From contig CP178758.1 in assembly GCA_047651235.1 (NCBI GenBank), forward strand, positions 3,510,001 to 3,542,000: 32,000 bases of DNA, written 5' to 3'. Below the pieces are notes generated by a model, which ran no database searches, was not told the origin of the DNA, and saw nothing but the letters and a program-made list of their open reading frames with translations. This DNA comes from Candidatus Electrothrix yaqonensis. GTDB taxonomy: Bacteria; Desulfobacterota; Desulfobulbia; Desulfobulbales; Desulfobulbaceae. A program made the position numbers and the translations under genes. This document shows, piece after piece, positions 2,239 through 16,998 of the stretch. How positions within the stretch are numbered: the stretch's first letter is position 1; each line of letters opens with the position of its first letter.

Positions 2239-4404
2239 ATGACAGATGAAGAATTGTTGCAGGTGATAGAGGAGGCTAAAGCAAGCGGGGCGACTTGGCT
2301 TGATCTACGGAGAAAAAATATAACTTCATTGCCTCCAGAAATTGGTCAGTTGACGGGGTTAACTTTTCTTTATCTTAATAGCAATCAACTCACTACCCTA
2401 CCAGAAGAGCTGTTTTATCTAACCAATCTAACGAGGCTCTATCTCCATGACAATAAGCTTTGTACTCTGCCACGAGAAATTGGCCAATTAAGCAATCTCA
2501 ACCATCTTAATCTTGCTCACAATCAGCTTACTAGCCTGCCGTCTGAAATTAGCCAGTTAATTAATCTGACAGAGTTTGATCTCAGCTGTAATCGCCTGAA
2601 TAGTCTCCCCAAAGAAATTGGTCTGCTGACTAAGCTGATATATTTATGGCTTGAGTATAATCAACTGACTCTACTCCCTGTAGAGTTGGCACAGTTAACC
2701 TCCCTAACAAGACTCAACCTAAAAAGCAATCGACTAACCATCCCACCACTAGAAATCATAGGACAAGGAATAGATGCTATTCGCCTGTACCTCGCATCTC
2801 TCCAACAGGAGGAACGTCCTCTCAACCAAGTCAAACTCCTCCTCATCGGTGAAGGTGCGGCAGGCAAGACATCACTTGTCAAACAGCTCTTCAACGAAGA
2901 CTTTGATGCCCACGAGGACACCACCCACGGTATCAACATCCGTAATTGGAAGGTGGAGGAGAACGGGGATACGCCTCTGCGGGTCAACATCTGGGACTTC
3001 GGCGGGCAGGAGATCATGCACGCCACGCACCAGTTCTTCCTTTCCCGGCGCAGCCTCTACGTCCTGGTGCTGGACGGTCGTCGGGACGAACGCCCGGAAT
3101 ACTGGCTCCGCCATATCGAGAGCTTCGGCGGCGACTCGCCGGTGCTGGTGGTCCTCAACAAGCAGGACAGCAACCCCTCATTCCAGTTGAACTACCCCTT
3201 CCTGCAGGCAAAGTACCCGGCCATCAGGGGCTTCTTCCGAACCTCCTGTGCCGACGGGCGCGGGATCGCCGAGTTCCGCAGTGCCCTGCTGCGCGAGCTG
3301 GCCTGGGTGGAGATGATCGGCATCCGCTGGCCCGGCAGCTGGTTCCGGGTCAAGGAACGCATTGAGCAGCTGGACCGACCGTATATCAGCAGCGAGGAGT
3401 ACAGCGATCTCTGCGCTGAGGCGGGCATCGGCGAGCCGCAGAGCCGGGAGGTGCTGGTTGACTTTCTCCATGATCTGGGTGCGGCTGTTCACTTCAAGGA
3501 CTTTGTTCTCAAGGCCATGCACGTCCTCGACCCGGTCTGGGTCACCGAGGCGGTGTATAAGATCATCAATGCCGAGGAGGTGGCGGACGCCCGAGGCACC
3601 CTGGGCCTGAACAGTCTCGGCAATATCCTGCCCTACGCCAGGGACGAAAAGCTCTCCTGGCCCGAGTCCACCCATGTCTTTATCCTGGAGCTGATGAAGA
3701 AGTTCGAGCTGTGCTGGGGCCTCGGCGAACAGGCCGTGCTCATCCCCCAGCTCCTGCCCGTGGCCGAACCCGCGTTCAGCTTTGATTACGCAAAGGCCCT
3801 GGGTTTTGTCCTCCATTATCAGGACTTCCTGCCGCCCTCGGTCATGCCCCGCTTTCTGGTCAAACGGCACAGCCAGATCAGGAAAGGCCTCTGCTGGCGC
3901 ACCGGGGTGGTGCTGGAGGATAAGGAGAGCGGCACTGAGGCCGTGGTCAAGGCGGATCATGAGGCCCGGCGCATCTATCTCTGGAGCAACGGCCCGCGCC
4001 GTAAAGAATTCCTCACCTTTCTCTGGTTCTCCCTGCGGGCGATCAACGACAGCTTTGAAAAGCTTCGAGTTAGCGAACGTATTCCCATGCCCGATGATCC
4101 TGAGGTCACGGCTGATTATCAGACCCTGTTGAAGTATGCAGAACGGGGCCATAACATGTATATTCCGGAAGGAAGCGACAAAGAGTACAGCGTGCGGGAG
4201 CTGCTGGGCCTTGTCGAGCCGAACAGGGAAGATGAGCAGTTGGAGCTGCTGCGGATGATTAAGGAGCAGATGGATGAGAAGGATTCAGGGGCGGAGGTGG
4301 TCAACAGCCTGTTTGATGTAAAACCAGGTCTTTTCGGGGTCAACATAAACCTCAACGAAGTTTTCAAACGTATCCTCGCCCGCGAGAAGCAGAAGCGAGG
4401 ATAG
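2239..4404 (+). CDS. ROCO-family GTPase: N-terminal leucine-rich repeats, Roc (Ras-of-complex) GTPase domain, COR domain and a short C-terminal tail
   Basis: About 7 LRRs of 23 residues (L..L..L.L..N.L..LP.EIGQL). Roc motifs are G1 LIGEGAAGKTS (nt 2848-2874), G3 WDFGGQE and G4 LNKQD. A roughly 400-aa COR-like region follows (WFRVKERIEQL...LIPQLLP...YSVRELLG). The architecture matches bacterial Roco proteins and the LRRK2 core. Confidence 0.85.
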   Translation: MTDEELLQVIEEAKASGATWLDLRRKNITSLPPEIGQLTGLTFLYLNSNQLTTLPEELFYLTNLTRLYLHDNKLCTLPREIGQLSNLNHLNLAHNQLTSLPSEISQLINLTEFDLSCNRLNSLPKEIGLLTKLIYLWLEYNQLTLLPVELAQLTSLTRLNLKSNRLTIPPLEIIGQGIDAIRLYLASLQQEERPLNQVKLLLIGEGAAGKTSLVKQLFNEDFDAHEDTTHGINIRNWKVEENGDTPLRVNIWDFGGQEIMHATHQFFLSRRSLYVLVLDGRRDERPEYWLRHIESFGGDSPVLVVLNKQDSNPSFQLNYPFLQAKYPAIRGFFRTSCADGRGIAEFRSALLRELAWVEMIGIRWPGSWFRVKERIEQLDRPYISSEEYSDLCAEAGIGEPQSREVLVDFLHDLGAAVHFKDFVLKAMHVLDPVWVTEAVYKIINAEEVADARGTLGLNSLGNILPYARDEKLSWPESTHVFILELMKKFELCWGLGEQAVLIPQLLPVAEPAFSFDYAKALGFVLHYQDFLPPSVMPRFLVKRHSQIRKGLCWRTGVVLEDKESGTEAVVKADHEARRIYLWSNGPRRKEFLTFLWFSLRAINDSFEKLRVSERIPMPDDPEVTADYQTLLKYAERGHNMYIPEGSDKEYSVRELLGLVEPNREDEQLELLRMIKEQMDEKDSGAEVVNSLFDVKPGLFGVNINLNEVFKRILAREKQKRG

Positions 4405-7165: not shown

Positions 7166-8515
7166 ATGGATGATATTGTAAGAAAAATAGAACAGCGAGA
7201 CCCGGAGCAGAAAGAATTTCTCCAAGCGGTTTCCGAGCTGATCGAAACGGTGAAACCGGTCCTGGACCGCAATCCGGAATACCGGCATCAGGCAATTATT
7301 GAGCGGATTACTGAGCCGGAGCGGGTCATCATGTTCCGGGTGCCCTGGATGGACGATCAGGGTAGGGTACAGGTCAACCGGGGCTTCCGGGTGGAGATGA
7401 ACTCGGCCCTCGGCCCGTACAAGGGCGGGCTGCGTTTTCATCCTTCAGTGACCCTGTCGATCATCAAGTTTCTCGCCTTTGAACAGGTCTTTAAAAACAG
7501 CCTGACCACCCTGCAGATCGGCGGCGGGAAGGGCGGGGCAGATTTTGATCCTAAGGGCCGTTCCGACGCTGAGGTCATGCGCTTCTGCCAGTCGTTTATG
7601 GCGGAACTGCAGCGGCATATCGGCCCGGATACCGATGTCCCGGCCGGAGATATCGGGGTCGGAGCCAGAGAAATAGGCTACCTGTTCGGCATGTACAAAA
7701 AGCTGCGCAACGAATTTACCGGAGTGATCACCGGCAAAAGTCTGAACTGGGGCGGCAGCCTGATCCGGCCCCAGGCCACTGGCTACGGCGTGGTCTATTT
7801 TGCTGCAGAAATGCTGGCCCGCAGCGGCGACTCGCCGGAAGGCAAAACCTGCCTGATTTCCGGGTCCGGCAATGTGGCCCAGTACACGGCGGAAAAGCTG
7901 CTCCAGCTCGGCGCCAAGGTACTGACCATGTCCGACTCATCAGGGTATATTTACGACGAGGAAGGCATTGATGCGGAAAAGCTGGGTTTCATCATGCAGC
8001 TGAAAAATATCCGCCGGGGCCGCATCCGGGAGTACTGCGAACAGTACCCGGCTGCCGTGTACACAGCAGTTGATCCTGACGCGGAGCATAATCCGCTCTG
8101 GAATCACAGGGCCGACTGCGCCATGCCCTGCGCAACCCAGAACGAAATCAATGCACAGGACGCCCGGAATCTGCTCGATAACGGCGTGCAGCTCGTCTGC
8201 GAAGGGGCAAATATGCCGAGCACGCCGGAAGCCGTTGATTTGTTTCTGGAGAGAAAAATTCTCTACGGCCCTGGCAAGGCGGCCAATGCCGGAGGCGTCG
8301 CGGTGTCCGGTCTGGAAATGGCCCAGAACTCCATGCGGCTTTCCTGGCCGGAAAAAGAGGTGGACGGTCGTCTGCGGCAGATCATGAAGTCCATTCATAC
8401 CACCTGTATAGATGCAGCCGAAGAATACGGTCTGCCGAAAAACTATCTGGCCGGGGCCAATGTGGCCGGGTTTGTCAAGGTGGTCAATGCCATGCTGGAT
8501 CAGGGGCTGGTCTAA
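7166..8515 (+). CDS. gdhA: NADP-specific glutamate dehydrogenase
   Basis: 449 aa. Carries the Glu/Leu/Phe/Val dehydrogenase signature QIGGGKGGADFDPKG and the Rossmann motif ISGSGNVAQY, and is colinear with GdhA over its full length. Confidence 0.93.
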   Translation: MDDIVRKIEQRDPEQKEFLQAVSELIETVKPVLDRNPEYRHQAIIERITEPERVIMFRVPWMDDQGRVQVNRGFRVEMNSALGPYKGGLRFHPSVTLSIIKFLAFEQVFKNSLTTLQIGGGKGGADFDPKGRSDAEVMRFCQSFMAELQRHIGPDTDVPAGDIGVGAREIGYLFGMYKKLRNEFTGVITGKSLNWGGSLIRPQATGYGVVYFAAEMLARSGDSPEGKTCLISGSGNVAQYTAEKLLQLGAKVLTMSDSSGYIYDEEGIDAEKLGFIMQLKNIRRGRIREYCEQYPAAVYTAVDPDAEHNPLWNHRADCAMPCATQNEINAQDARNLLDNGVQLVCEGANMPSTPEAVDLFLERKILYGPGKAANAGGVAVSGLEMAQNSMRLSWPEKEVDGRLRQIMKSIHTTCIDAAEEYGLPKNYLAGANVAGFVKVVNAMLDQGLV

Positions 8516-8618
8516 GGGGGAGGAGCCGGTAGTCGGCAGAAAAAGAAAAGGGGCGGTGGTGGAAACGGGGCAGGCACATCCCCGGAAAAACATCCCAGGA
8601 AAACAGGCAATCCGTTTT

Positions 8619-8651
8619 GGCAGGTGCTCCCGCCGCCCCTGCCTTTTTTTT
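8619..8651 (+). terminator. Rho-independent terminator downstream of gdhA
   Basis: ggcagg (8619-8624) pairs with cctgcc (8638-8643), followed by T8 (8644-8651). Confidence 0.7.
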
Positions 8652-8672
8652 ACAAAGGAACAAATGTCAGTT

Positions 8673-8879
8673 CTACTGATATTGCAGTTTTAAGCAGTCA
8701 AATTTATTAGGGTTCAGGTAGAAGTCATCTGCTATGAACATGCGACGTCCCATGATAACTCTAAAGTAACCTTCAACCCACTGACCTTTGGAATACAGTT
8801 TTTTTCCATTAATCCCTATGAAAAAGAAGCTCCTCTTTACCCGAGCGAGGCATTTTTCATTATTCACGTTATCCTCCAT
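8673..8879 (-). CDS. Hypothetical small protein (68 aa) in an AT-rich islet; coding status uncertain
   Basis: It is the only ORF in the low-GC 8.66-9.0 kb stretch (MEDNVNNEKCLARVKRSFFFIGINGKKLYSKGQWVEGYFRVIMGRRMFIADDFYLNPNKFD...). No clear Shine-Dalgarno and no family recognised. Confidence 0.3.
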   Translation of the reverse strand: MEDNVNNEKCLARVKRSFFFIGINGKKLYSKGQWVEGYFRVIMGRRMFIADDFYLNPNKFDCLKLQYQ

Positions 8880-8995
8880 AGTAGTATAAAAAATTATACC
8901 TAAAGTTTAGATTATTCTACATTGGACATTTTCTAAACTCAAGAATAAATTTAAGGATGATCTTTTATTTGGTATAATTCCTTTTATACAGACTA

Positions 8996-9047
8996 TATAG
9001 ATGGAGAAGGAAAATGTGATCTGCCGAAAAACTACCTGGCCGGATCC
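8996..9047 (+). pseudogene. Relic copy of the gdhA 3' region
   Basis: 8996-9047 aligns without gaps to gdhA 8407-8458 at 41/52 identity, with a 23/24 core (tctgccgaaaaacta[c/t]ctggccgg, 9020-9043 vs 8431-8454). In frame this is IDGEGKCDLPKNYLAGS vs IDAAEEYGLPKNYLAGA. Confidence 0.6.
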
Positions 9048-9219
9048 GATCTTATGTCCCTGCATCTGATTGACGCGGATATGGCACGATCATGTTCTCG
9101 GTATTGCGGATTATGATATAAACTCAATTGAAAATGCTATAGGATACATCGCCAATGGCGTTCCCAATGTAACAACTAACAACTATGCATCATTTCCGGT
9201 GCGCAAGGAGGAGAAGTAT

Positions 9220-10476
9220 ATGCGGGAAAAGAAAAAGGATCACCTGACGTGGTATATTCTAGGGGCAATCGTTATTGCTGTTGTTTTTGCGCTTGTTTTC
9301 CCCCACGCAGCGATGAAGTTCCATATCGGCGGGGAGGTTTTTCTCAATCTGCTGAAAATGATGGTTGTGCCGCTGGTGGTCTCCAGTGTTATGAACGGGA
9401 TACTCGGCTTAGGGGATATCCGCAAGCTCGGGCGTCCAGGAGGCGCCGCACTGCTCTATTATTTTTCCACCACGGTCATGGCCGTGCTGGTCGGGCTTGT
9501 GGTGGTCAATATCATTCAACCGGGGAACGGAACCATTGATCAGCAGACCCTGAACGAAATTGCCGCGCAAGGTGCCGAAGGCAGCATGAACAGCGATGCC
9601 GATATCGGAACTATTCTGAATAATCTTGTTCTGATGCTGTTTACAGACAACCTGTTTGATTCCGCTGCCAACACAGACCTGCTGCCGCTGATTGTCTTTT
9701 CCATCATCTTTGCCGGAATGCTCACTACTATGGGCAGCCGGGTGGAAATCATCGTCAATATTATTGACCAGATAAATGACGCTTTTATAGCCTTTGTCCT
9801 GCTGCTGATGAAGGTGGCTCCTGTCGGAATTTTCTGCCTGGTCGCCTCCAGATTCGGCGAAGCACAGGCAGAAGGAGAGTTCTTTAAGGTTCTGCAGCAG
9901 TTGGGGCTGTATATGCTCACCGTGCTTGCCGGACTGGGTATTCATGCCTTTGTAACCCTGCCCCTGATTCTCCGGTTTGTCACCAAACGAAATCCGCTCC
10001 AGTTTATGTATCAGATGTCGCAGGCCCTGCTGACCGCCTTTTCCACGGCCAGCTCCTCAGCAACCCTGCCGGTCACGATGGAATCAGCGGTCGAGGAAGC
10101 AGAGGTTTCCGAACAGTCTGTGAATTTTGTTCTGCCTCTGGGCGCAACCGTGAATATGGACGGCACGGCCCTGTACGAGGCTGTGGCCGCGATTTTTATC
10201 GCCCAAGCAATCGGGATCGAGCTGAGCCTGACGGCCCAGTTGACCGTGGCGGTCACAGCCACGCTGGCTGCCATCGGCGCCGCAGGTATCCCGGAAGCCG
10301 GACTGGTCACCATGCTCATCGTCCTGAATGCGGTCGGCCTGCCCACGGAATATATCAGCCTGATTCTGGCAGTGGACTGGCTGCTGGATCGTTTCCGGAC
10401 AACGGTCAATGTCTTCGGGGACGCCATCGGTGCAGCTGTGGTTGAAAAAATATTCCCAGCCAAGGATACAAAATAA
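9220..10476 (+). CDS. Dicarboxylate/amino acid:cation symporter (DAACS / glutamate-transporter family)
   Basis: 418 aa and polytopic. Carries the Ser-rich HP1 motif FSTASSSATLP and the TM7 motif VNMDGTALYEAV, both diagnostic of the family. The ATG at 9220 follows AAGGAGGAG; the track start at 9070 adds 50 non-membrane residues. Confidence 0.88.
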   Translation: MREKKKDHLTWYILGAIVIAVVFALVFPHAAMKFHIGGEVFLNLLKMMVVPLVVSSVMNGILGLGDIRKLGRPGGAALLYYFSTTVMAVLVGLVVVNIIQPGNGTIDQQTLNEIAAQGAEGSMNSDADIGTILNNLVLMLFTDNLFDSAANTDLLPLIVFSIIFAGMLTTMGSRVEIIVNIIDQINDAFIAFVLLLMKVAPVGIFCLVASRFGEAQAEGEFFKVLQQLGLYMLTVLAGLGIHAFVTLPLILRFVTKRNPLQFMYQMSQALLTAFSTASSSATLPVTMESAVEEAEVSEQSVNFVLPLGATVNMDGTALYEAVAAIFIAQAIGIELSLTAQLTVAVTATLAAIGAAGIPEAGLVTMLIVLNAVGLPTEYISLILAVDWLLDRFRTTVNVFGDAIGAAVVEKIFPAKDTK

Positions 10477-10477
10477 A

Positions 10478-10603
10478 CCTCGTCGCCGGGTTGTTGAGCG
10501 TATTTTTTCATGGTTGAATTTGCACTGGAGATTGAGCAAGGAGTATGAAGTGCTTCCTGGCTCCTCGGAAGCAATGATCCGTGATCCGAATTGCCATCAT
10601 TGA
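10478..10603 (+). mobile_element. IS5-family (DDE) transposase C-terminal relic, 5'-truncated
   Basis: Reads PRRRVVERIFSWLNLHWRLSKEYEVLPGSSEAMI, matching the conserved IS5-family C-terminus (..VVER.F.WLN..RRLSKDYE.LP.TSEAMI..). It begins 1 nt after the transporter stop (TAA 10474-10476) and no upstream transposase sequence remains. The IS end probably lies within about 30 nt after 10603. Confidence 0.7.
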
Positions 10604-10847
10604 GGATTATGCTCAACTTTTCAGACAGCTTCTGGTGCTCCTCTGTTCAAGATTAACTGCTTCGGGTGAGCTGTACCGTAGACTGAGAGCAGGAAAGGCG
10701 TGGTCCTCCGCAGGGGTTGTTCTCTTTTCTGTCTCCGTGTACAATGGCCGGAAAGAAAGGCCAGCTTCCTGCAGAGGTATATCCAGGGAATGCGGCACCT
10801 GCAGCCTGCCCCCTTTCCGAATTATTCGTAGAATACTCGTTGATGGT

Positions 10848-11867
10848 ATGAATATTTCTTTTCTGCACCTTTCCGGTGCATTCGTTTTGCTGCCCGTCAT
10901 CTTTATGGCAGCAAAATTCTCTTCCCGTCGCATTCTTTGCAGGATAGAAATCCCCGGCAGTTCAGCCAGGATTGTAGACAGGATTCTCTCTTTTGCTTTC
11001 TTTATTATATATCTGGCGGCCCTTTTTGTTCTGCATGTCATAGTGACCCTGCACCAGGCAGATAGTCTTGAGTATATTTCTGTATCTCCGCTGCCGCCCC
11101 CGCCCTTGTCCAAAGTTGTCCTTCCTTCCTCTCCTGCCGTAGAACTTGAAATACCACAAGGGAAATTATCCTTTGAAAAAGTCAATGACCGTCTGTTTCA
11201 GGTTGCATTTGACCGAAAGGCTCTGAACAACGTAATATATAATCTGCCGTTCTTTCCTTCCCGCGTCATTGCGGCATCACAGGGAAATTTTTCCTTTGAA
11301 GAACTTGACGACCGTCTGGTTCAGGTTGAGCTCGATCAGAAGGCTCTAAACAACGTAATATATAATCTGCCGTTCTTTCCTTCCCGCGTCATTGCGGCAT
11401 CACAGGGAAATTTTTCCTTTGAAGAACTTGACGACCGTCTATTTCAGGTTGAATTCGATCAGAAGATTCTGAACGAAACGATACATAACCTGCCGTTCTT
11501 TCCGGAAGATAAAGAGAGAACTGATGATCAGGCCAAGATGATACAACAGTGTCAGGAGAGACTGGCAGAATTACAATCTGCTGCGGGTCAGGAGAAAGGA
11601 GGACAATACACTCAAAGAAATAAAGTAAATATAATATGTGATTCCATGAGTGCAAAAGACCATCAGCGTTTTTATGATGCCCTGCATACTCTGCCGATCA
11701 ATACATCTGATTCCTGGACAAATCAAGAAAATAAAAATCGTTACACAGTACGTCCGATCAACAGCTATACTGAAAAAGATAAATCTTGCCGGAATTATAT
11801 CATTGAAGCTGCTGTTGACGGAGTATCTTACAGATATGCAGGACATGACTGCAGGATTTCGGACTAA
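10848..11867 (+). CDS. Membrane-anchored repeat protein with a C-terminal domain resembling the 17-kDa surface-antigen type
   Basis: Two N-terminal hydrophobic helices, a Pro-rich linker (PLPPPPL) and 2.8 tandem 41-aa repeats. The C-terminus NRYTVRPINSYTEKDKSCRNYIIEAAVDGVSYRYAGHDCRISD recalls, from memory, the ..Y.V.P......G..CR.Y........G......G.ACR..DG.W surface-antigen domain. The start is uncertain (ATG 10848 or 10905). The track start at 10581 reads through the IS5 relic. Confidence 0.6.
   Translation: MNISFLHLSGAFVLLPVIFMAAKFSSRRILCRIEIPGSSARIVDRILSFAFFIIYLAALFVLHVIVTLHQADSLEYISVSPLPPPPLSKVVLPSSPAVELEIPQGKLSFEKVNDRLFQVAFDRKALNNVIYNLPFFPSRVIAASQGNFSFEELDDRLVQVELDQKALNNVIYNLPFFPSRVIAASQGNFSFEELDDRLFQVEFDQKILNETIHNLPFFPEDKERTDDQAKMIQQCQERLAELQSAAGQEKGGQYTQRNKVNIICDSMSAKDHQRFYDALHTLPINTSDSWTNQENKNRYTVRPINSYTEKDKSCRNYIIEAAVDGVSYRYAGHDCRISD
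11157..11505 (+). repeat. Tandem 123-bp (41-codon) in-frame repeat, about 2.8 copies
   Basis: Copies start at 11157, 11280 and 11403. The last 54 nt of copies 1 and 2 are identical, and the first 38 nt of copies 2 and 3 are identical. Confidence 0.9.
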
Positions 11868-11905
11868 ATCCGGTAAAAGGTCGCTATCCTTTTCACCGGA
11901 TTTTC
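11867..11905 (+). terminator. Hairpin terminator between convergent genes
   Basis: aatccggtaaaagg (11867-11880) pairs with ccttttcaccggatt (11888-11902) with one bulge, followed by a short T-run. It starts at the last base of the TAA stop of the repeat-protein gene (TAA 11865-11867). Confidence 0.6.
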
Positions 11906-11969
11906 GTAGCCCGTCACATCGTGAGGAACAAAGCGGAGCTTTCCGGAGTCCGGTCTTGTGAGGCGCGAA

Positions 11970-12215
11970 TCACTGCGGACGGTTCACGCACTCATACTTT
12001 CTTTTGATGCCCCTGCTCTTCTTGCCGCCAGTGACTTTAATGACTTGACCGGTATCGCAGCGACCGTCATTTTCCACGTACACAATGTGATTATAGGACA
12101 GGGTGTAGTTTGCAGGCATTGCTTTCAGCACCTTTTTCTGACTGTCCTGCTGACAGCCTGCAAGAAACAGCATGCTGGAAAAAATGACCACTGCATTCAG
12201 TAGGGAGCATTTCAT
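11970..12215 (-). CDS. Small lipoprotein (81 aa; mature part about 60 aa with 2 further Cys)
   Basis: Signal peptide plus lipobox MKCSLLNAVVIFSSMLFLAG|C. The mature part is QQDSQKKVLKAMPANYTLSYNHIVYVENDGRCDTGQVIKVTGGKKSRGIKRKYECVNRPQ. An alternative start at 12227 (MGNAMKC...) would lie 1 nt after the upstream stop (TGAcATG). The track start at 12407 overlaps the radical SAM gene and is rejected. Confidence 0.7.
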   Translation of the reverse strand: MKCSLLNAVVIFSSMLFLAGCQQDSQKKVLKAMPANYTLSYNHIVYVENDGRCDTGQVIKVTGGKKSRGIKRKYECVNRPQ

Positions 12216-12228
12216 AGCGTTTCCCATG

Positions 12229-14097
12229 TCAGTTGTTGTCGTCAGAAACATGCATCTCGGATAACTCGCTTCTGTGCCAATAGAATTCAATATTCTGAAA
12301 CGGCAGATTGATCGCCTGAATATGATAGAAGGCGTTCTTGCGGTGCTTGATGTAATGGTATTCCCGCAGGGCCTTGGTAGTGATGAATAAATTATTCCGT
12401 ACTCCATCTAAATAGAACTGGGCGTGACTGATCAGCAGCCAGGAAATGTCCAGCAGGGCATAGTTTCCTTCCACTTGGGCAGCGGCAAAGAAGGCGTTCT
12501 TGTAGAGCGAATAGTCAAAAATATGCTCCTGCTTGCTGCGCTGTTCGTCGCCATAGACCACTGTCGTGTCACGCAGGAGCATCAGATGAAGATAATTTTT
12601 GATTTCGTCAGCGCAGGCGAGACGGAACACATCCTCCCGCACACCAAGCAGTACCGTACTGCTCTCGTCCAGTACCTCAATCTCCATCTCATTTTTGAGA
12701 ATCGCTGAACGCAGGCGGTATTCCACGCCATTGACCCGAAGGAAGAACAGCTCGTCGCTGTACAGAGCCTGCAGATTGGCATCACGGTGGATGATCTCGA
12801 TCAGCCGGTTAGTATCGGCAAACAGCTCCGGGGTGATCACCCGTTCCTTTTCCGTATAAGTTTGCTGCAGCTTCTTCAGGTTGTTATTCAGGAAAAAACG
12901 CTGTGCATAGGCGGAGATTCTTTCCGCAGGCAGAGGTGGCCAGCGGTCGGGCGCATCCTGATAGAGCTGCTTCTGCAGCAGACAGGTATAGCTTTTCTTC
13001 AGCCCTGTCTCCTGCCGGACAAAGGTGCAGCCGAGGTTGCAGTGCGGCAGCCACGGGCAGCGGGCGCAGCCGTCGTCAATGTCGAGCAGGTTTTCATTGC
13101 GCTCAATCACGTTCCAGCCATTGTTGATCACCGCCTCCACGCCGTCTGTGAAGATGTTGCCGTAGCGGTACGCTGGCGAGGACTGGCCGCGCGGACAGGA
13201 GAAGACCTCGCCGTCAAACTGGAGCAGGAAGAACTTGCCCCCGCAGTTGACTGAGGAGCAGCAGAACTCCGGGGAGAACTCCTTGAACCACTCTGTACGC
13301 AGGGCGTTCTCCAGCGGGCTGCCGACAAAAGCCTTCTTCACCGCCTGATAGAACTCGACCTGTTCGGCATCCGTGAGCATAGCCGCGCCTTCGTCCTGTT
13401 GAGCAAATTTGCTCCTGTTTTTGCCGGAGTCAAAGCCGAACATGACATTGAAGCGGCTCATGTCCAGGCCGACTTCATAATGGAGCTGCTTGATCTCGAT
13501 AATGAATTCATCTACCGCTGCAAGGTGAGCGCGGGTGACCACGCAGGAAATCTTCTTGTTGTGCGGATAGGTGGCCAGCAGCTTGAGATTTTCTCTGATC
13601 CGGGCCAAGGTGCTGCGGCCCTGTTTATCCCGGCGGAACTGCTCGTGCAGGCGGAGGGGCAGGTCCACGCTGCCGCTGATCGAAACCCGGTGCTTGACAA
13701 AGATATCCCAATGCCGCTGAAAATCAAAGAGATTGGTTTTGATATGCGGCGGACTGACCCGGAAGCCCTGCGCCTTGATCTCCTCGCCATAGGCCGCGTA
13801 ATGGCGGGCGGCAATGCTGAACAGGCCGTCTAACAGCTCTGAAGACAGGGTGGTGACTTCGCCGCCATGAAAGGAGAGATTAAAGGGCAGATAACCGTGC
13901 ACTAGGAGCTGCTCCAAGGCAGTGTTCAGGGTGCCGAGCACTTTATCCGGCTCCGGCTTGGCAGCGGTCAGGTCGCCCAGGTAGCAGTACCGGCAGCTCA
14001 TATTGCAGAACTTGGTCGGTACATAGAGCAGATGGATGGCTTTCTTGAGCTGCATTGCAGGCGAAGCTGCTTGCTCAGTGGTGTGAACTGCTGACAT
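12229..14097 (-). CDS. Radical SAM / SPASM-domain enzyme with a roughly 250-aa C-terminal extension of unknown function
   Basis: CxxxCxxC cluster motif FCNMSCRYCYLG (aa 31-38, nt 13984-14007). Canonical SPASM cysteine pattern: GEVFSC (G-x4-C) and CARCPWLPHCNLGC (C-x2-C-x5-C-x3-C), aa about 279-372, nt 12982-13263. Residues about 375-622 match nothing I recognise. The start could also be the Met at 14055. Confidence 0.8.
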   Translation of the reverse strand: MSAVHTTEQAASPAMQLKKAIHLLYVPTKFCNMSCRYCYLGDLTAAKPEPDKVLGTLNTALEQLLVHGYLPFNLSFHGGEVTTLSSELLDGLFSIAARHYAAYGEEIKAQGFRVSPPHIKTNLFDFQRHWDIFVKHRVSISGSVDLPLRLHEQFRRDKQGRSTLARIRENLKLLATYPHNKKISCVVTRAHLAAVDEFIIEIKQLHYEVGLDMSRFNVMFGFDSGKNRSKFAQQDEGAAMLTDAEQVEFYQAVKKAFVGSPLENALRTEWFKEFSPEFCCSSVNCGGKFFLLQFDGEVFSCPRGQSSPAYRYGNIFTDGVEAVINNGWNVIERNENLLDIDDGCARCPWLPHCNLGCTFVRQETGLKKSYTCLLQKQLYQDAPDRWPPLPAERISAYAQRFFLNNNLKKLQQTYTEKERVITPELFADTNRLIEIIHRDANLQALYSDELFFLRVNGVEYRLRSAILKNEMEIEVLDESSTVLLGVREDVFRLACADEIKNYLHLMLLRDTTVVYGDEQRSKQEHIFDYSLYKNAFFAAAQVEGNYALLDISWLLISHAQFYLDGVRNNLFITTKALREYHYIKHRKNAFYHIQAINLPFQNIEFYWHRSELSEMHVSDDNN

Positions 14098-14104
14098 CAG
14101 CGTA

Positions 14105-15076
14105 TTATCGGTTTTCCTGCTCCTCGATCACCTTACGAAGCAATTCTCGATGTGAATCCTTTTTTATATCTGCAAATCTAGGAACAGCATGTTGGTGGAG
14201 AAGATCAGATATGTCAAAGTCGGTTACAATCGAGCCAAATTGACTGTTTGATTCCGCCGCATCTAATACTTCTATTATTTCTTTGAGAGAGAAATAACTG
14301 TATTTATCTAACTTTTCTATAATGTTGTGAGTTTGGGCAAAGCTTCCTGAACTTGATAACTGCTCAATAAGTTCCTGCTTTTCCTTGTCATATGAAAAAG
14401 CAATTCCATCAAAATGCTTGTTAGTAAACTCAGACAATGTTCGATATACGAAAACATTCCCATTTTTCTTCTGCTTCCATTCCTTAATAAGGAATGCGTT
14501 CGGTTTGTTTTCATCTAAAACGGAGTAGTAATCGCCATCCGCAGAAATGATGTGAATATCGTTTTTATCTGGAACGTTCTCTGTAAGTATTTCCCAATTT
14601 ATTGCATCGCCTAAACTTCTTCCTTTTTTACCTGGAGGGTTCCCCCGTGCCAAGCGTACATTTGCAGCTTCCATGTGTTTAGCGGTGACCTTTTTACAAT
14701 CAGAATCTTTAAATATTTTTGCAGTCAATTTATCGGCTGGAAGCTCTTCATTTGCGATAGCTTCATTGATCTTGCTCAGTATCGATTTGCTAACCTGTCT
14801 TGCCTCCTTTGCAATTTCTTGCAACCGCTTGTACTCTTCGTACCCTTTCATGAAAGACGGAAACTGTGGATGCAGTCTGGAATTGTTGAATTTTTTCAGA
14901 GCATCCTTGATCTTCCCATCCCGATTCCGAACAAATTCATCTTTTACCTGCTCCGTTACATACACTGTAGCTGCTCCATGTTCATGATCGGTGAACACTT
15001 CATTCAGTGAATCTAGCTCGTCGTTTGAGTAATGGTAGAAACTCAACAATATGTTTGTATCTACGAAAACATGCAT
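14105..15076 (-). CDS. PIN-like (DUF4935-type) putative nuclease with a C-terminal helical domain
   Basis: Starts with MHVFVDTNILLSFY (h-h-D-T-N, the first PIN acidic motif). Later candidate motifs are RGNPPGKKGRSLGDAINWEIL and IHIISADGDYY. Sampled 60-nt windows give about 30-38% GC, against 57-67% in the flanking genes. Confidence 0.6.
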   Translation of the reverse strand: MHVFVDTNILLSFYHYSNDELDSLNEVFTDHEHGAATVYVTEQVKDEFVRNRDGKIKDALKKFNNSRLHPQFPSFMKGYEEYKRLQEIAKEARQVSKSILSKINEAIANEELPADKLTAKIFKDSDCKKVTAKHMEAANVRLARGNPPGKKGRSLGDAINWEILTENVPDKNDIHIISADGDYYSVLDENKPNAFLIKEWKQKKNGNVFVYRTLSEFTNKHFDGIAFSYDKEKQELIEQLSSSGSFAQTHNIIEKLDKYSYFSLKEIIEVLDAAESNSQFGSIVTDFDISDLLHQHAVPRFADIKKDSHRELLRKVIEEQENR

Positions 15077-15097
15077 AGCTTTTTCACGTACCTAATG

Positions 15098-15901
15098 TCA
15101 CCACCAGAAATAGATAAGCAGCCCGGCATTGAGGAGCAGGAAGGCAACGTTGATCCGTTTGCTCCATGCGGCATCCCAAGCGTCGCTTATGAATTGATCA
15201 GCTTCGTGCTGCACGGCGATGAAGGACGGAAACTCAAAGCGTCGGGTTGGTTTGATGAAGAGGCGGCCGTCCCTGCCGCAGGATAGACGGCCCTGCACCG
15301 TGACGCTGTCACCATGGAACAGGAAATACTCCGTCAGATGGTATAGTTTGTACTTTCTGTCAGCGTTGCTCTTCAGTGCTGTCGGGCAATGCACTTGGGT
15401 GCTCTCCTTGCTGCGTAACCCTAAGCATCTTTTGGTGAACTCCTCAACCTTGACATGGACCCGGCAGTCCTTGTCTGCCAGCTCAAGTGTTGCAGAAGAT
15501 TGCTCGCGCAGCAGCGGCTTGCGCACGGTTTCCCAGCCCTTGCTTGGTTTCTTCTTCTTGACCTGTCGTTCTCCGACCACCAGTGCAGCATAGTAAACGC
15601 ACTCGCTGCCGCTCAGAGGCAAGCGGCATGGCCGTTCTTCCGTCACTTTGCCGGTGAAGCGGACATAGCAGTCAATCAGGTCTGGATTAAACTTGGCCGG
15701 ATTCTCAGCCATCCATGCCCTTCTCTTGAATGCGCCAATCTTGCGCCACTGCCAGCAGGCCAGAAGAAACAGCACGGTCGGCAGAACATAACAGAATATA
15801 ATCTTAGAATCAGGTAAATCGTGCGATTTAAGCCCGATATGCTGCACTCCTGCGGTCAGCAGAAGAAAAAAGATGCTTCTCAAGAATATATTCGCAGTCA
15901 T
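15098..15901 (-). CDS. Membrane protein with a GIDE-like central domain
   Basis: Two N-terminal hydrophobic helices and one C-terminal (INVAFLLLNAGLLIYFWW). The central VRFTGKVTEERPCRLPLSGSECVYYAALVV resembles, from memory, the GIDE-domain signature (..G.v....l.sPlsg..CvyY...). A GGAGG Shine-Dalgarno lies 8 nt upstream of the ATG at 15901. Confidence 0.5.
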   Translation of the reverse strand: MTANIFLRSIFFLLLTAGVQHIGLKSHDLPDSKIIFCYVLPTVLFLLACWQWRKIGAFKRRAWMAENPAKFNPDLIDCYVRFTGKVTEERPCRLPLSGSECVYYAALVVGERQVKKKKPSKGWETVRKPLLREQSSATLELADKDCRVHVKVEEFTKRCLGLRSKESTQVHCPTALKSNADRKYKLYHLTEYFLFHGDSVTVQGRLSCGRDGRLFIKPTRRFEFPSFIAVQHEADQFISDAWDAAWSKRINVAFLLLNAGLLIYFWW

Positions 15902-15921
15902 CGCAGCAGCCTCCGGTTGGC

Positions 15922-16347
15922 TTATCCGTTATTGTTATTGCCGTTGTTATTATTGTTATTATTATTGTTATTATTATTGTTGTTGCTGCTAAAACCGGAA
16001 TACCCATAGTCGGCTGCTCCGGTATTTTTTTCACCCTCTGGGCCAAGGTAATAGAGCGGGTCAAGCCGGGTTATTCGCTCACCGTCAAAACGGAGGTAGT
16101 CAGCACCGGATGCGCTGCCCAAGGTTTTCGCTGTGTTCATGCCGTAGGCAGTGAAGAGGTAGAGGGTGCCGCTCCGGAAAAGGACAGAGGGATATTCCGA
16201 GGCATGGGTCTGCAGATGTTTGGCAATGAGGTGCCGCGCTTTTGCTCTGTCTTTGATGCCGGTCTGCTGCAGATAACTGTCCAGCTTTTGTCTCAGCGCC
16301 TCATCATTTTTGACCGCTGAGGACGATTCCATCTCCAAATTTATCAT
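15922..16347 (-). CDS. Hypothetical protein (141 aa) with a G/Y/S-rich segment and a poly-asparagine C-terminal tail
   Basis: An AGGAGGAG Shine-Dalgarno lies 6 nt upstream of the ATG at 16347. The C-terminus is ...GAADYGYSGFSSNNNNNNNNNNNNNNGNNNNG*. No family recognised for the first roughly 115 aa. Confidence 0.6.
   Translation of the reverse strand: MINLEMESSSAVKNDEALRQKLDSYLQQTGIKDRAKARHLIAKHLQTHASEYPSVLFRSGTLYLFTAYGMNTAKTLGSASGADYLRFDGERITRLDPLYYLGPEGEKNTGAADYGYSGFSSNNNNNNNNNNNNNNGNNNNG
15928..15984 (-). repeat. AAT/AAC (Asn) codon tract: 18 Asn codons interrupted by one Gly codon
   Basis: The plus strand reads gttattgttatt gcc gttgttattattgttattattattgttattattattgttgtt. The (aat)3aac unit recurs. 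Confidence 0.9.
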
Positions 16348-16998
16348 GACGTGCTCCTCCTGCGTAGGAAAAGTTCAATTGCATCCTTCCGCATTGTCCT
16401 GTCCTCCCATAAGTTCTTCCAGAGTGTCATTGTGACTCCGCCTCTTTTTGTACCAGCGAAATCAGCATATTGTCAAGCGGTTTCTGTAAACCTCCCCTCC
16501 GGAGCACCATTTTCACCTCATTTTGAGGGAGGTTTCCCGGATAGTAGGTTTTGGGGAATAATGACGTAGGATCAATGAGATACTTTGCTGGTAAAAAAGT
16601 ACTGCAACTTGTTGATCTGTAAAGTATTTTCTGCATTTCAACTCTGAAGAGCCCTTTTTTACCCCCTGAGCAGGGCAAAAACGGCCAAAAAACGACCCAG
16701 GTTCTCCAAAGGCTATCTAAACTTTCAGGACAACAGAGGATACGAGCGATTTTTTACCCCTACAGCCCGCCCCTGATGGCCGGGCGGGAGGAAACGGGGC
16801 GGCCCTGGTATTTTTATTCGCAATAGATTCAAAAGAACGTTATTTTTACAGGGCGGCATAAAATTCCAATATTAAAAATAGGATACTGTCTCGCTACCCC
16901 TCTTGCTGGTGCTGAACGTTATGAAAAAATGATTCTTCCAGGCAGCAGAGAGCAGGCCTGCACCGCATAATCAGACATCCTCCCGATAAAACCAGTCT

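Follow-up and report, generated by a model that had tools for sequence, protein, structure and literature searches.

We analysed a minus-strand gene cluster in a 32,000-nucleotide stretch of the Candidatus Electrothrix yaqonensis genome (contig CP178758.1, positions 3,510,001 to 3,542,000; the whole stretch is called the window below). The cluster encodes, in order, a poly-asparagine (poly-Asn) protein, a membrane protein, a PIN_12 protein, a radical S-adenosylmethionine (SAM or AdoMet)/SPASM enzyme (rSAM) and a small DUF6719 lipoprotein. The locus is very probably a composite of a core cassette, a lipoprotein accessory and a PIN passenger. Comparison of genomes reveals the core to be a conserved cassette, which in clade A, the enzyme clade of the window, consists of the rSAM, the poly-Asn protein and the membrane protein. 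We propose that the Asn-Gly tail of the poly-Asn protein is the substrate of the rSAM, which the gene order and the conservation of the tail make rather likely.

A conserved asparagine-glycine tail beside the radical SAM enzyme

The poly-Asn gene (15922-16347, minus strand) encodes a protein of 141 amino acids. The five window proteins were searched against the open reading frames (ORFs) of 79 loci in species-representative genomes; the window contig brings the set to 80 loci. The poly-Asn gene adjoins the rSAM gene in 75 of these 80 loci, in at least ten phyla, and the adjacency spans Desulfobulbia, Thiotrichales, Alteromonadales, Campylobacterota, Myxococcota, Geobacterales, Rhodocyclales, Bacteroidota, Cyanobacteriota, Deinococcus and Fibrobacterota. 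Members of the poly-Asn family are about 105-160 amino acids long, occur as one copy per locus, and are built from a conserved α/β N-domain of about 100 residues, a variable linker and the C-terminal tail. In every one of the 75, the C-terminus consists of an Asn run of 7-32 residues (median 15), usually with Ser ahead of it, and one closing Gly. The window protein ends in SS-N14-G-N4-G, encoded by mixed AAC and AAT codons at 15925-15990 on the minus strand. The original prediction, which was made from the letters of the window, had treated this protein as a low-complexity oddity, yet nothing else in the locus is as conserved or as informative as its tail.

The pattern of the tail covaries with the enzyme clade. 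An internal Gly is present in 28 of the 31 clade-A tails (N10-14-G-N2-7-G), and the Asn run is uninterrupted in 42 of the 44 tails from clade B. Summed over the 75 tails, AAC and AAT are used at close to 1:1 (602:544) and are mixed along the run, a pattern that fits selection on the run of amino acids better than expansion of a repeat; Tandem Repeats Finder detected only an imperfect periodicity of 3-12 nt in the tail codons. The alternation of AAC and AAT may limit replication slippage or tune the speed of translation.

Searched with the family profile, 1.84 billion representative proteins yielded 61 clusters. Twenty were inspected, and all 18 full-length members among them end in poly-Asn-Gly, the other two being probable fusions or a false positive. 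Three database proteins (P0279, P0315 and P0134) carry the poly-Asn N-domain fused straight onto the membrane protein, and probably reflect a frameshift or assembly error across the AAY repeat. Another frame of this repeat reads as an Ile/Thr-rich stretch (ITTTII) and opens long ORF calls for the membrane-protein gene.

The N-domain is conserved across phyla, and in clade A a (D/N)PxYYLG motif is conserved just before the linker. The AlphaFold2 (AF2) model of the poly-Asn protein has a predicted local distance difference test score (pLDDT) of 64 and a disordered tail. The N-domain has no fold match in the PDB at E<0.3, and the protein has no match in Pfam, NCBIfam or PADLOC. Clade-B partners contain a hydrophobic stretch of 15-17 residues between the N-domain and the Asn tail (e.g., LILLGTTGLVLTMPG; L063:9873-10313, L038:9833-10315) that none of the clade-A partners has. 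This stretch may associate with the membrane and replace part of the role of the clade-A membrane protein.

The radical SAM/SPASM enzyme

The rSAM gene (12229-14097, minus strand) encodes 622 amino acids, in a family whose members are about 600 residues long. The search returned 642 homologues. The best 120 of the 642 share 47-88% identity with the window enzyme over about 95% of the length. The top matches, at 85-88%, are in Ca. Electrothrix, and homologues among the matches listed span Gammaproteobacteria, Campylobacterota and Myxococcota. The radical SAM motif starts about 30 residues from the N-terminus. Its Cx3Cx2C signature for the AdoMet [4Fe-4S] cluster (C31-x3-C35-x2-C38) is invariant in 18 of 18 aligned homologues. 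The seven-Cys SPASM motif is likewise complete and invariant (C285-x10-G-x4-C301, C344-x2-C347-x5-C353-x3-C357, C372), and the cysteines of this region also include C279/C280.

Profile matches place the enzyme among the maturases, outside any named family. The Pfam Radical_SAM match (25.1 bits) is just below the cut-off of 29.5, and TIGR04085 (38.6 versus 27 bits), the generic SPASM model, is the only one to pass. All 35 NCBIfam equivalog matches are far below their cut-offs, for clade-A and clade-B enzymes alike, the best being DynA (79 bits versus 450) and anSME (73 versus 349). The rSAM thus falls in no characterised housekeeping family, which supports the original prediction. Its detectable relatives are all protein or peptide maturases (anSME, DynA, DarE/DarW, GrrM, AmcB, PapB, CbpB, QhpD and HxsB), and the nearest solved structure is anSME (4K36, profile match at 2e-17). 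Against PADLOC-DB v2 the rSAM gave only weak pVip matches (1.7e-4), located on the cluster-binding stretch.

The enzyme carries an additional C-terminal domain (residues ~393-622, encoded by 12232-12921, minus strand), which is presumed to dock the substrate. This region contains the invariant motifs YGDExRxKQEH and NAFYHIQAINLPF, the second also given as NAFYHxQAINLPF, and the motifs are kept down to phage homologues of 33% identity. AF2 predicts a β-rich fold with a pLDDT of 88 and a predicted template modelling score (pTM) of 0.79. The domain has no sequence match in the PDB, and the best Foldseek TM-score is 0.31, indicating no fold relative.

Membrane partners and cassette architecture

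The membrane-protein gene (15098-15901, minus strand) encodes 267 amino acids. Its clade-A family is found in 31 loci, exactly those whose rSAM is at least 50% identical to that of the window, and the gene adjoins the poly-Asn gene in all 31 of these type-A genome loci. Two N-terminal and one C-terminal hydrophobic helices surround a soluble domain of about 190 residues with a conserved KxKKPxKG(M/W)ET motif. Hydropathy and the distribution of Lys and Arg reveal a K/R-rich stretch after the second helix. The soluble domain is therefore probably cytoplasmic, where the oxygen-sensitive rSAM must work. The protein is remotely GIDE-like: 4 of the 31 family members match Pfam GIDE (PF12483; best E-value 4.8e-5), the window protein does not match at E<=0.1, and the family profile has no relative in the PDB.

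Clade A shows two gene orders, one with the rSAM gene ahead of the poly-Asn and membrane-protein genes and one with it behind them, and is found in Desulfobulbia, Thiotrichales, Alteromonadales, Campylobacterota and some Myxococcota. Clade B is found in Geobacterales, Rhodocyclales, Bacteroidota, Myxococcota, Cyanobacteriota, Deinococcus and Fibrobacterota. Its cassettes start with a protein of about 165 amino acids with two transmembrane (TM) helices, followed by the rSAM and, as the last gene, the poly-Asn protein. The two-TM protein carries an EKFPTNARK...KI.ANK.AKF.KV motif and belongs to no Pfam family.

A reciprocal search, started from a narrowed alignment of the membrane protein, was run against metagenome contigs and found 14 loci. 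All ten with sufficient upstream sequence carry the rSAM, the poly-Asn protein and the membrane protein, in the order rSAM, optional DUF6719, poly-Asn, membrane protein; none of the 14 has a PIN gene. The co-occurrence that the original prediction proposed to check therefore holds for these three genes and fails for the PIN gene, which is confined to the window contig. All-against-all clustering of 1125 neighbouring ORFs revealed no conserved fourth gene.

The genes that flank the core in other genomes are mainly of housekeeping, transport or regulatory type, and of 134 sampled flanking proteins only a handful have defence-type matches in PADLOC. With so few PADLOC matches, a defence-island context was rejected as unconvincing. 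No type-A or type-B cassette was found on viral contigs. A GNAT acetyltransferase gene lies directly 5' of the cassette in Ca. Electrothrix scaldis (L088:4096-4623) and in four clade-B loci (L037, L041, L043 and L062). The GNAT was considered as a conserved partner and rejected, since phmmer links the E. scaldis protein to none of the other four, and its position is probably incidental.

A PIN_12 passenger

The PIN gene (14105-15076, minus strand, 323 amino acids) encodes a DUF4935-type protein that scores above the cut-offs of PIN_12 (PF16289; 61.7 versus 32 bits, 1.5e-16) and PIN_8 (37.2 versus 26.1). Its C-terminal 70 residues match the PADLOC candidate PDC-S34 at 1.2e-12, over the C-terminal part of the profile only. 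The gene is absent from 79 of 79 related genome loci and 14 of 14 metagenome loci, and occurs only on the window contig, from the cable bacterium Ca. Electrothrix sp. YB6, under whose name an NCBI entry 100% identical to the PIN protein is recorded. The absence extends to the two closest loci of the same gene order. In E. scaldis (L088) the genes run in the order GNAT, poly-Asn, membrane protein, rSAM, DUF6719, and 12 nt lie between those for the membrane protein and the rSAM; in a Desulfobulbaceae metagenome-assembled genome (L002) this gap is 2 nt. The PIN gene of the window sits exactly in this gap, and apart from the PIN segment the window and E. scaldis are syntenic at the nucleotide level from 16375 to 11970. 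The GC content of the gene is 0.388 and that of its third codon positions (GC3) 0.383, compared with a GC3 of 0.58-0.71 in its neighbours. No direct repeats or target-site duplication are visible at the junctions of the insert.

The PIN family is large (1540 homologues) and reaches at least 50% identity across unrelated phyla. In four sampled genomic contexts the homologues are solo genes, beside Tn7-like TniABQ and BrxR in the first, recombinases and ParDE in the second and Abi_C in the third; the fourth, in Blastocatellales, has an amino-acid permease, a GNAT, a TonB-dependent receptor and, close by, a further PIN-domain gene. A fifth context, from a metagenome, holds insertion sequence (IS) transposases and McrBC. 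The rSAM gene is found in none of the five. On these comparative grounds, the PIN gene is best described as a recent foreign insertion that is not part of the conserved system. It is an independently mobile candidate defence or toxin gene and is probably co-transcribed with the cassette as a passenger.

The original prediction had taken all five genes as one module, and had considered adjacency incidental wherever homologues fail to co-occur in other genomes. Since the PIN gene is absent from the related loci, its adjacency is incidental by that measure. Together with the foreign base composition and the solo occurrence of its homologues, this removes the PIN gene from the module. Tight operon spacing alone is therefore weak evidence for shared function, a lesson for annotation drawn from splitting the conserved module from its PIN passenger.

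The DUF6719 lipoprotein

The last gene of the cluster (11970-12215, minus strand) encodes 81 amino acids counted from the second ATG; an alternative ATG at 12227 is also possible. The protein matches DUF6719 (PF20477; 39.7 bits versus a cut-off of 27, 4.3e-10) and starts with MKCSLLNAVVIFSSMLFLAGC, which contains a LAGC lipobox. It has no PADLOC match. The gene is found in four genome loci, all from cable bacteria (L003, L004, L025 and L088), and always 3' of the rSAM gene. Besides the window, this arrangement is seen in E. scaldis, Ca. Electronema aureum, Electronema sp. JC and Ca. Electronema halotolerans, as well as in two metagenome contigs (L106 and L108). Outside cable-bacterial or cable-bacterium-like loci it was not found in the genome and metagenome loci surveyed. 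From this distribution, the DUF6719 lipoprotein appears to be a cable-bacterium-specific accessory.

The Ca. Electronema halotolerans locus (L025, OW818675.1) holds an rSAM-DUF6719 pair at 7977-10095 that is 89% identical to the pair of the window. It is flanked by pgsA-like and adenylate-cyclase genes on one side and by ahcY and metK on the other, and no poly-Asn or membrane-protein gene lies within 8 kb. These partners may be encoded elsewhere in the genome or have been lost.

Phage homologues and asparagine-ended tail fibres

A tblastn search of plasmids and phages found full-length rSAM homologues in the temperate Campylobacter phage CAM-P21 (MW462221; 33% identity, 2e-95 in a pairwise comparison) and in a prophage on a C. 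coli plasmid. On plasmids, the search gave only one distant homologue. The phage proteins keep the C-terminal domain motifs as YGDEKREK and NAFYHAQTINLPF, and the window rSAM gives a full-length match to phrog_1802 (5.4e-45; residues 9-608 of the enzyme on positions 32-552 of the 556-position profile). Databases, PHROGs included, annotate this branch simply as 'radical SAM' or 'hypothetical'.

Twelve of 13 IMG/VR loci of the phage branch share a gene order of tail fibre, 211-residue protein, rSAM and DUF1353 'tail assembly chaperone', so that in the Campylobacter Mu-like phages the rSAM gene lies two genes 3' of the tail-fibre gene. The tail fibres diverge strongly in their C-terminal regions and nevertheless end in short Asn runs of 2-5 residues: STNNNNY, ATNNNNY, SSNNNNY, SCNNNNN, TGNNF, MGNNS, MGNNF or SGNNF (L091:2235-3341, from CAM-P21, and the IMG/VR loci L092, L097-L102 and L104). 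This phage setting puts the same enzyme family beside an Asn-ended protein once more and offers an independent hint in favour of tail modification. The 211-residue protein was considered as a homologue of the poly-Asn N-domain and rejected, hhalign finding the two unrelated.

Proposed function and alternative explanations

By comparison of genomes, the core comprises a cytoplasmic rSAM, a small Asn-tailed protein and an inner-membrane protein. In the scheme that we propose, the rSAM would dock its partner, maybe through the extra C-terminal domain, and the Asn-Gly tail would be threaded into the active site, where the 5'-deoxyadenosyl radical would take hydrogen from the Cα or Cβ of Asn or from the Cα of the terminal Gly. 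Epimerisation, Asn-Asn or backbone cross-linking or oxidation, and oxidative processing of the terminal Gly are all plausible outcomes because the tail lacks Cys and aromatic residues; we do not rank them with confidence. The product would more likely be a modified protein than a released peptide, since no protease or exporter is conserved. The membrane partner, GIDE-like in clade A and an unrelated two-TM protein in clade B, may dock or use the product at the membrane.

Several observations weigh against the tail as substrate and against this scheme. The case for tail modification is inferred from adjacency and conservation. The Pfam and NCBIfam matches include no PqqD-like recognition element; it is for this reason that the C-terminal domain becomes the candidate for partner docking, as we infer here. 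No protease, exporter, ABC transporter or C39 peptidase is conserved in about 90 loci, which leaves the logic of a ribosomally synthesized and post-translationally modified peptide (RiPP) pathway incomplete. The membrane partners of the two clades are unrelated by hhalign, making their role guesswork, and the N-domain model is of moderate confidence (pLDDT 64). Three loci with full flanks (L025, L034 and L037) have no poly-Asn ORF within 8 kb. In the phages, the divergent locus L103 has no Asn-ending neighbour, and the tail fibres end in an aromatic residue or in Ser or Asn rather than Gly, so the chemistry may differ from that of the bacterial cassettes. With these points in mind, we suggest only tentatively that a dedicated rSAM/SPASM family, set apart by its C-terminal domain, rewrites C-terminal Asn runs by epimerisation, Asn cross-linking or Gly-dependent processing, serving both the cassettes in at least ten phyla and the maturation of phage tail fibres; this wider claim is on balance doubtful.

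Other explanations give the genes a role in conflict. If all five formed one defence module, the PIN protein would be the effector and the others sensor or regulator parts, as the 7-21 nt spacing, the shared direction, a likely co-transcription in the window strain and the PDC-S34 match of the PIN C-terminus might suggest. The absence of the PIN gene from all 79 genome and 14 metagenome loci, those of the same order in E. scaldis and L002 included, its GC3 of 0.38 against 0.58-0.71 in its neighbours and the occurrence of its family (1540 homologues) as solo genes in other contexts, some of them mobile or defence settings, largely refute this module, and we consider it very improbable. The remaining trio could still act as an anti-phage or abortive-infection system, with the membrane protein as the killing component and the rSAM and poly-Asn protein as trigger or regulator. 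Its sporadic spread across phyla suggests horizontal transfer, its flanks are unrelated, and it occupies different positions in two Electrothrix genomes. In addition, a defence-type PIN gene has inserted at the cassette, a few neighbours are defence genes (type III restriction endonuclease, AriA, AbiLi, PtuA and SduA), and relatives are encoded by phages. However, the core proteins have no meaningful PADLOC match, housekeeping, transport or regulatory functions prevail among the 134 sampled neighbours, and type-A and type-B cassettes are missing from viral contigs, with one distant homologue on a plasmid. Moreover, the module around the phage homologues is structural (tail fibre), a setting that speaks for protein maturation and not for immunity. 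We judge a defence or conflict role for the core unlikely.

The poly-Asn protein could also be a RiPP-type precursor, in which the N-domain is a leader, the Asn tail is cleaved off and exported, and the membrane protein provides export or immunity. A maturase adjoining a precursor with a C-terminal core fits this idea, as does the (D/N)PxYYLG motif before the linker in clade A, and leaders of about 100 residues occur in proteusins. The lack of a conserved protease, ABC transporter or C39 peptidase argues against a released peptide, as do membrane proteins with just two or three TM helices, a folded and conserved N-domain that is not a typical leader, and a single precursor copy per locus, and we hold this explanation to be improbable. 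The tail as substrate is compatible with a defence role and with a released peptide alike. A further alternative takes the run of Asn codons as a translational sensor that stalls when tRNA-Asn or asparagine is short or when phages attack tRNA-Asn; the tail would then not be a substrate, and the rSAM would act elsewhere. Single-codon runs are classic stalling and attenuation sensors, and in clade A the run is just 5' of the membrane-protein gene. But in clade B the poly-Asn gene is the last of the cassette, the invariant terminal Gly and the clade-specific Gly pattern are features of the protein, the N-domain is conserved across phyla, and the phage analogues have just 2-5 Asn, all of which make a sensor highly unlikely.

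Modification of the Asn-Gly tail by the rSAM is therefore the explanation that we prefer. If the wider claim, phages included, were true, homopolymeric Asn would be a new class of radical SAM substrate and a new C-terminal protein tag. Much new peptide chemistry comes from radical SAM/SPASM maturases, and a tail that cable bacteria share with Geobacter, Myxococcota, Bacteroidota and Cyanobacteriota would suggest that the chemistry takes place on Asn or on the backbone. The phage link suggests maturation or stabilisation of the tip of a structural protein, which would matter for the engineering of tail fibres and for the range of hosts that Campylobacter phages infect. The system is small, with two soluble proteins and one membrane protein, and hence directly testable by co-expression and mass spectrometry.

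Layout and surroundings of the locus in the window

The five co-directional genes are separated by 20, 21, 7 and 13 nt, which reproduces the spacing of the original prediction. Two mini-ORFs with ATGA overlaps precede them at 16344-16678 (minus strand), also as described: the TGA of an 83-codon ORF (16427-16678) overlaps the ATG of a 28-codon ORF (16430-16344), whose own TGA overlaps the ATG of the poly-Asn gene at 16347. Homology of the window to E. scaldis and L002 ends at 16375, and the mini-ORFs therefore lie outside the conserved block. The ribosome-binding sites pointed out before the first two genes are present, AGGAGGAG ahead of the poly-Asn gene and GGAGG ahead of the membrane-protein gene.

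Other signals were partly upheld. A hairpin proposed as the terminator of the cluster lies between convergent gene ends at 11867-11905 (unstranded) and folds with a stem of about 15 bp, but it lacks a minus-strand U-tract and was not called in a terminator scan; it is a possible bidirectional terminator. Beside it, a 35-nt stretch (11904-11938) matches a non-syntenic site (L002:1265-1299) at 89% identity and may be a small dispersed repeat. The ORF of 64 amino acids that had been called an IS5 transposase relic has a weak DDE_Tnp_1_2 match (1.2e-4), which is compatible with such a relic although it falls below the Pfam cut-off. The spacer at 16680-16998, described as AT-rich, is only mildly so (GC 0.473 against a window mean of 0.525). 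Among the protein labels first assigned to the cluster, PIN, SPASM and the lipoprotein find support above cut-off (PIN_12, SPASM and DUF6719 models), whereas GIDE is weak. An Rfam scan in and near the locus found three distant tRNAs only.

The flanks are of housekeeping type, as expected: ilvD, gdhA, a sodium:dicarboxylate symporter, an MscS-type channel, ComEC and trigger factor. Upstream of ilvD and gdhA, the plus strand encodes a 721-residue GTPase of the ROCO type (2239-4404), with a leucine-rich repeat (LRR)-Roc-COR architecture that is uncommon among bacteria. A plus-strand ORF of 428 codons (10581-11867) converges on the cluster and contains 2.8 copies of a 123-nt (41-residue) tandem repeat of 87% identity at 11159-11503. 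It belongs to no Pfam, NCBIfam or PADLOC family, and its true start is uncertain because its 5' end overlaps the IS relic.

Comparison with known systems

The original prediction recognised no named system in the cluster, and this is borne out by NCBIfam equivalogs far below cut-off and by the lack of meaningful PADLOC matches for the rSAM, the poly-Asn protein and the membrane protein. A full-text literature search, the NCBIfam equivalogs and the PADLOC models contained no description of the cassette. To our knowledge, the well-studied radical SAM/SPASM maturases all target Cys, aromatic, Lys/Arg or aliphatic positions in mixed sequences, and we know of no radical SAM chemistry on a homopolymeric Asn-Gly tail.

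The PIN protein resembles the PDC-S34/PIN_12 single-gene candidates in scoring above the PIN_12 cut-off and in the mobile-element, defence or toxin-antitoxin neighbours of three of the four sampled homologue contexts; it differs in covering the C-terminal part of the PDC-S34 profile only.

Of all solved structures, anSME/AtsB (4K36, TIGR03942) lies closest to the rSAM, and in NCBIfam it is among the two best matches (1.7e-20). Both share the AdoMet cluster and two auxiliary SPASM clusters, and anSME acts on a protein side chain. However, the score is well short of the family (73 bits against 349), the rSAM has an extra C-terminal domain of about 230 residues, and no sulfatase or Cys/Ser-type target motif lies near it, the candidate substrate being the Asn-Gly tail. 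The phrog_1802 proteins are full-length homologues that include the C-terminal domain motifs and have a nearby protein ending in an Asn run. They differ from the cassette in their tail-fibre/chaperone module, in a candidate target that ends in N2-5 and Tyr, Phe, Ser or Asn rather than N7-32 and Gly, and in having neither a GIDE-like nor a clade-B membrane partner.

Among the rSAM/SPASM maturases of RiPPs, DynA, of the dynobactin and darobactin enzymes DynA/DarE, is the best NCBIfam match (3e-22), and the three-residue cyclophane formers GrrM/OscB, AmcB, YhhB and XyeB follow at 1e-15 to 1e-9. As in these systems, the maturase adjoins a partner with a conserved C-terminal target, an adjacency seen in 75 of the 80 loci. 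Unlike them, the cassette scores far under all cut-offs and lacks a recognition element and a peptidase or exporter. Those enzymes cross-link aromatic residues, whereas the bacterial tails here consist of Asn, Gly and Ser and the partner, instead of being a short peptide, is a folded domain of about 100 residues with a tail. The cassette therefore resembles an rSAM/SPASM maturation pair but falls outside every named family.

The proteusin polytheonamide combines a large leader, an Asn-rich core and the rSAM epimerase PoyD. The cassette shares with it an N-terminal region of about 100 residues, an Asn-rich C-terminal core and, presumably, radical SAM chemistry that needs no reactive side chain, such as epimerisation. 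It differs in that no homology to PoyD or to an NHLP leader was detected, the enzyme being of the SPASM type near anSME and DynA, in the absence of methyltransferases and other tailoring genes from the cassette, and in its homopolymeric core. By analogy, polytheonamide offers a possible model of how the cassette may work.

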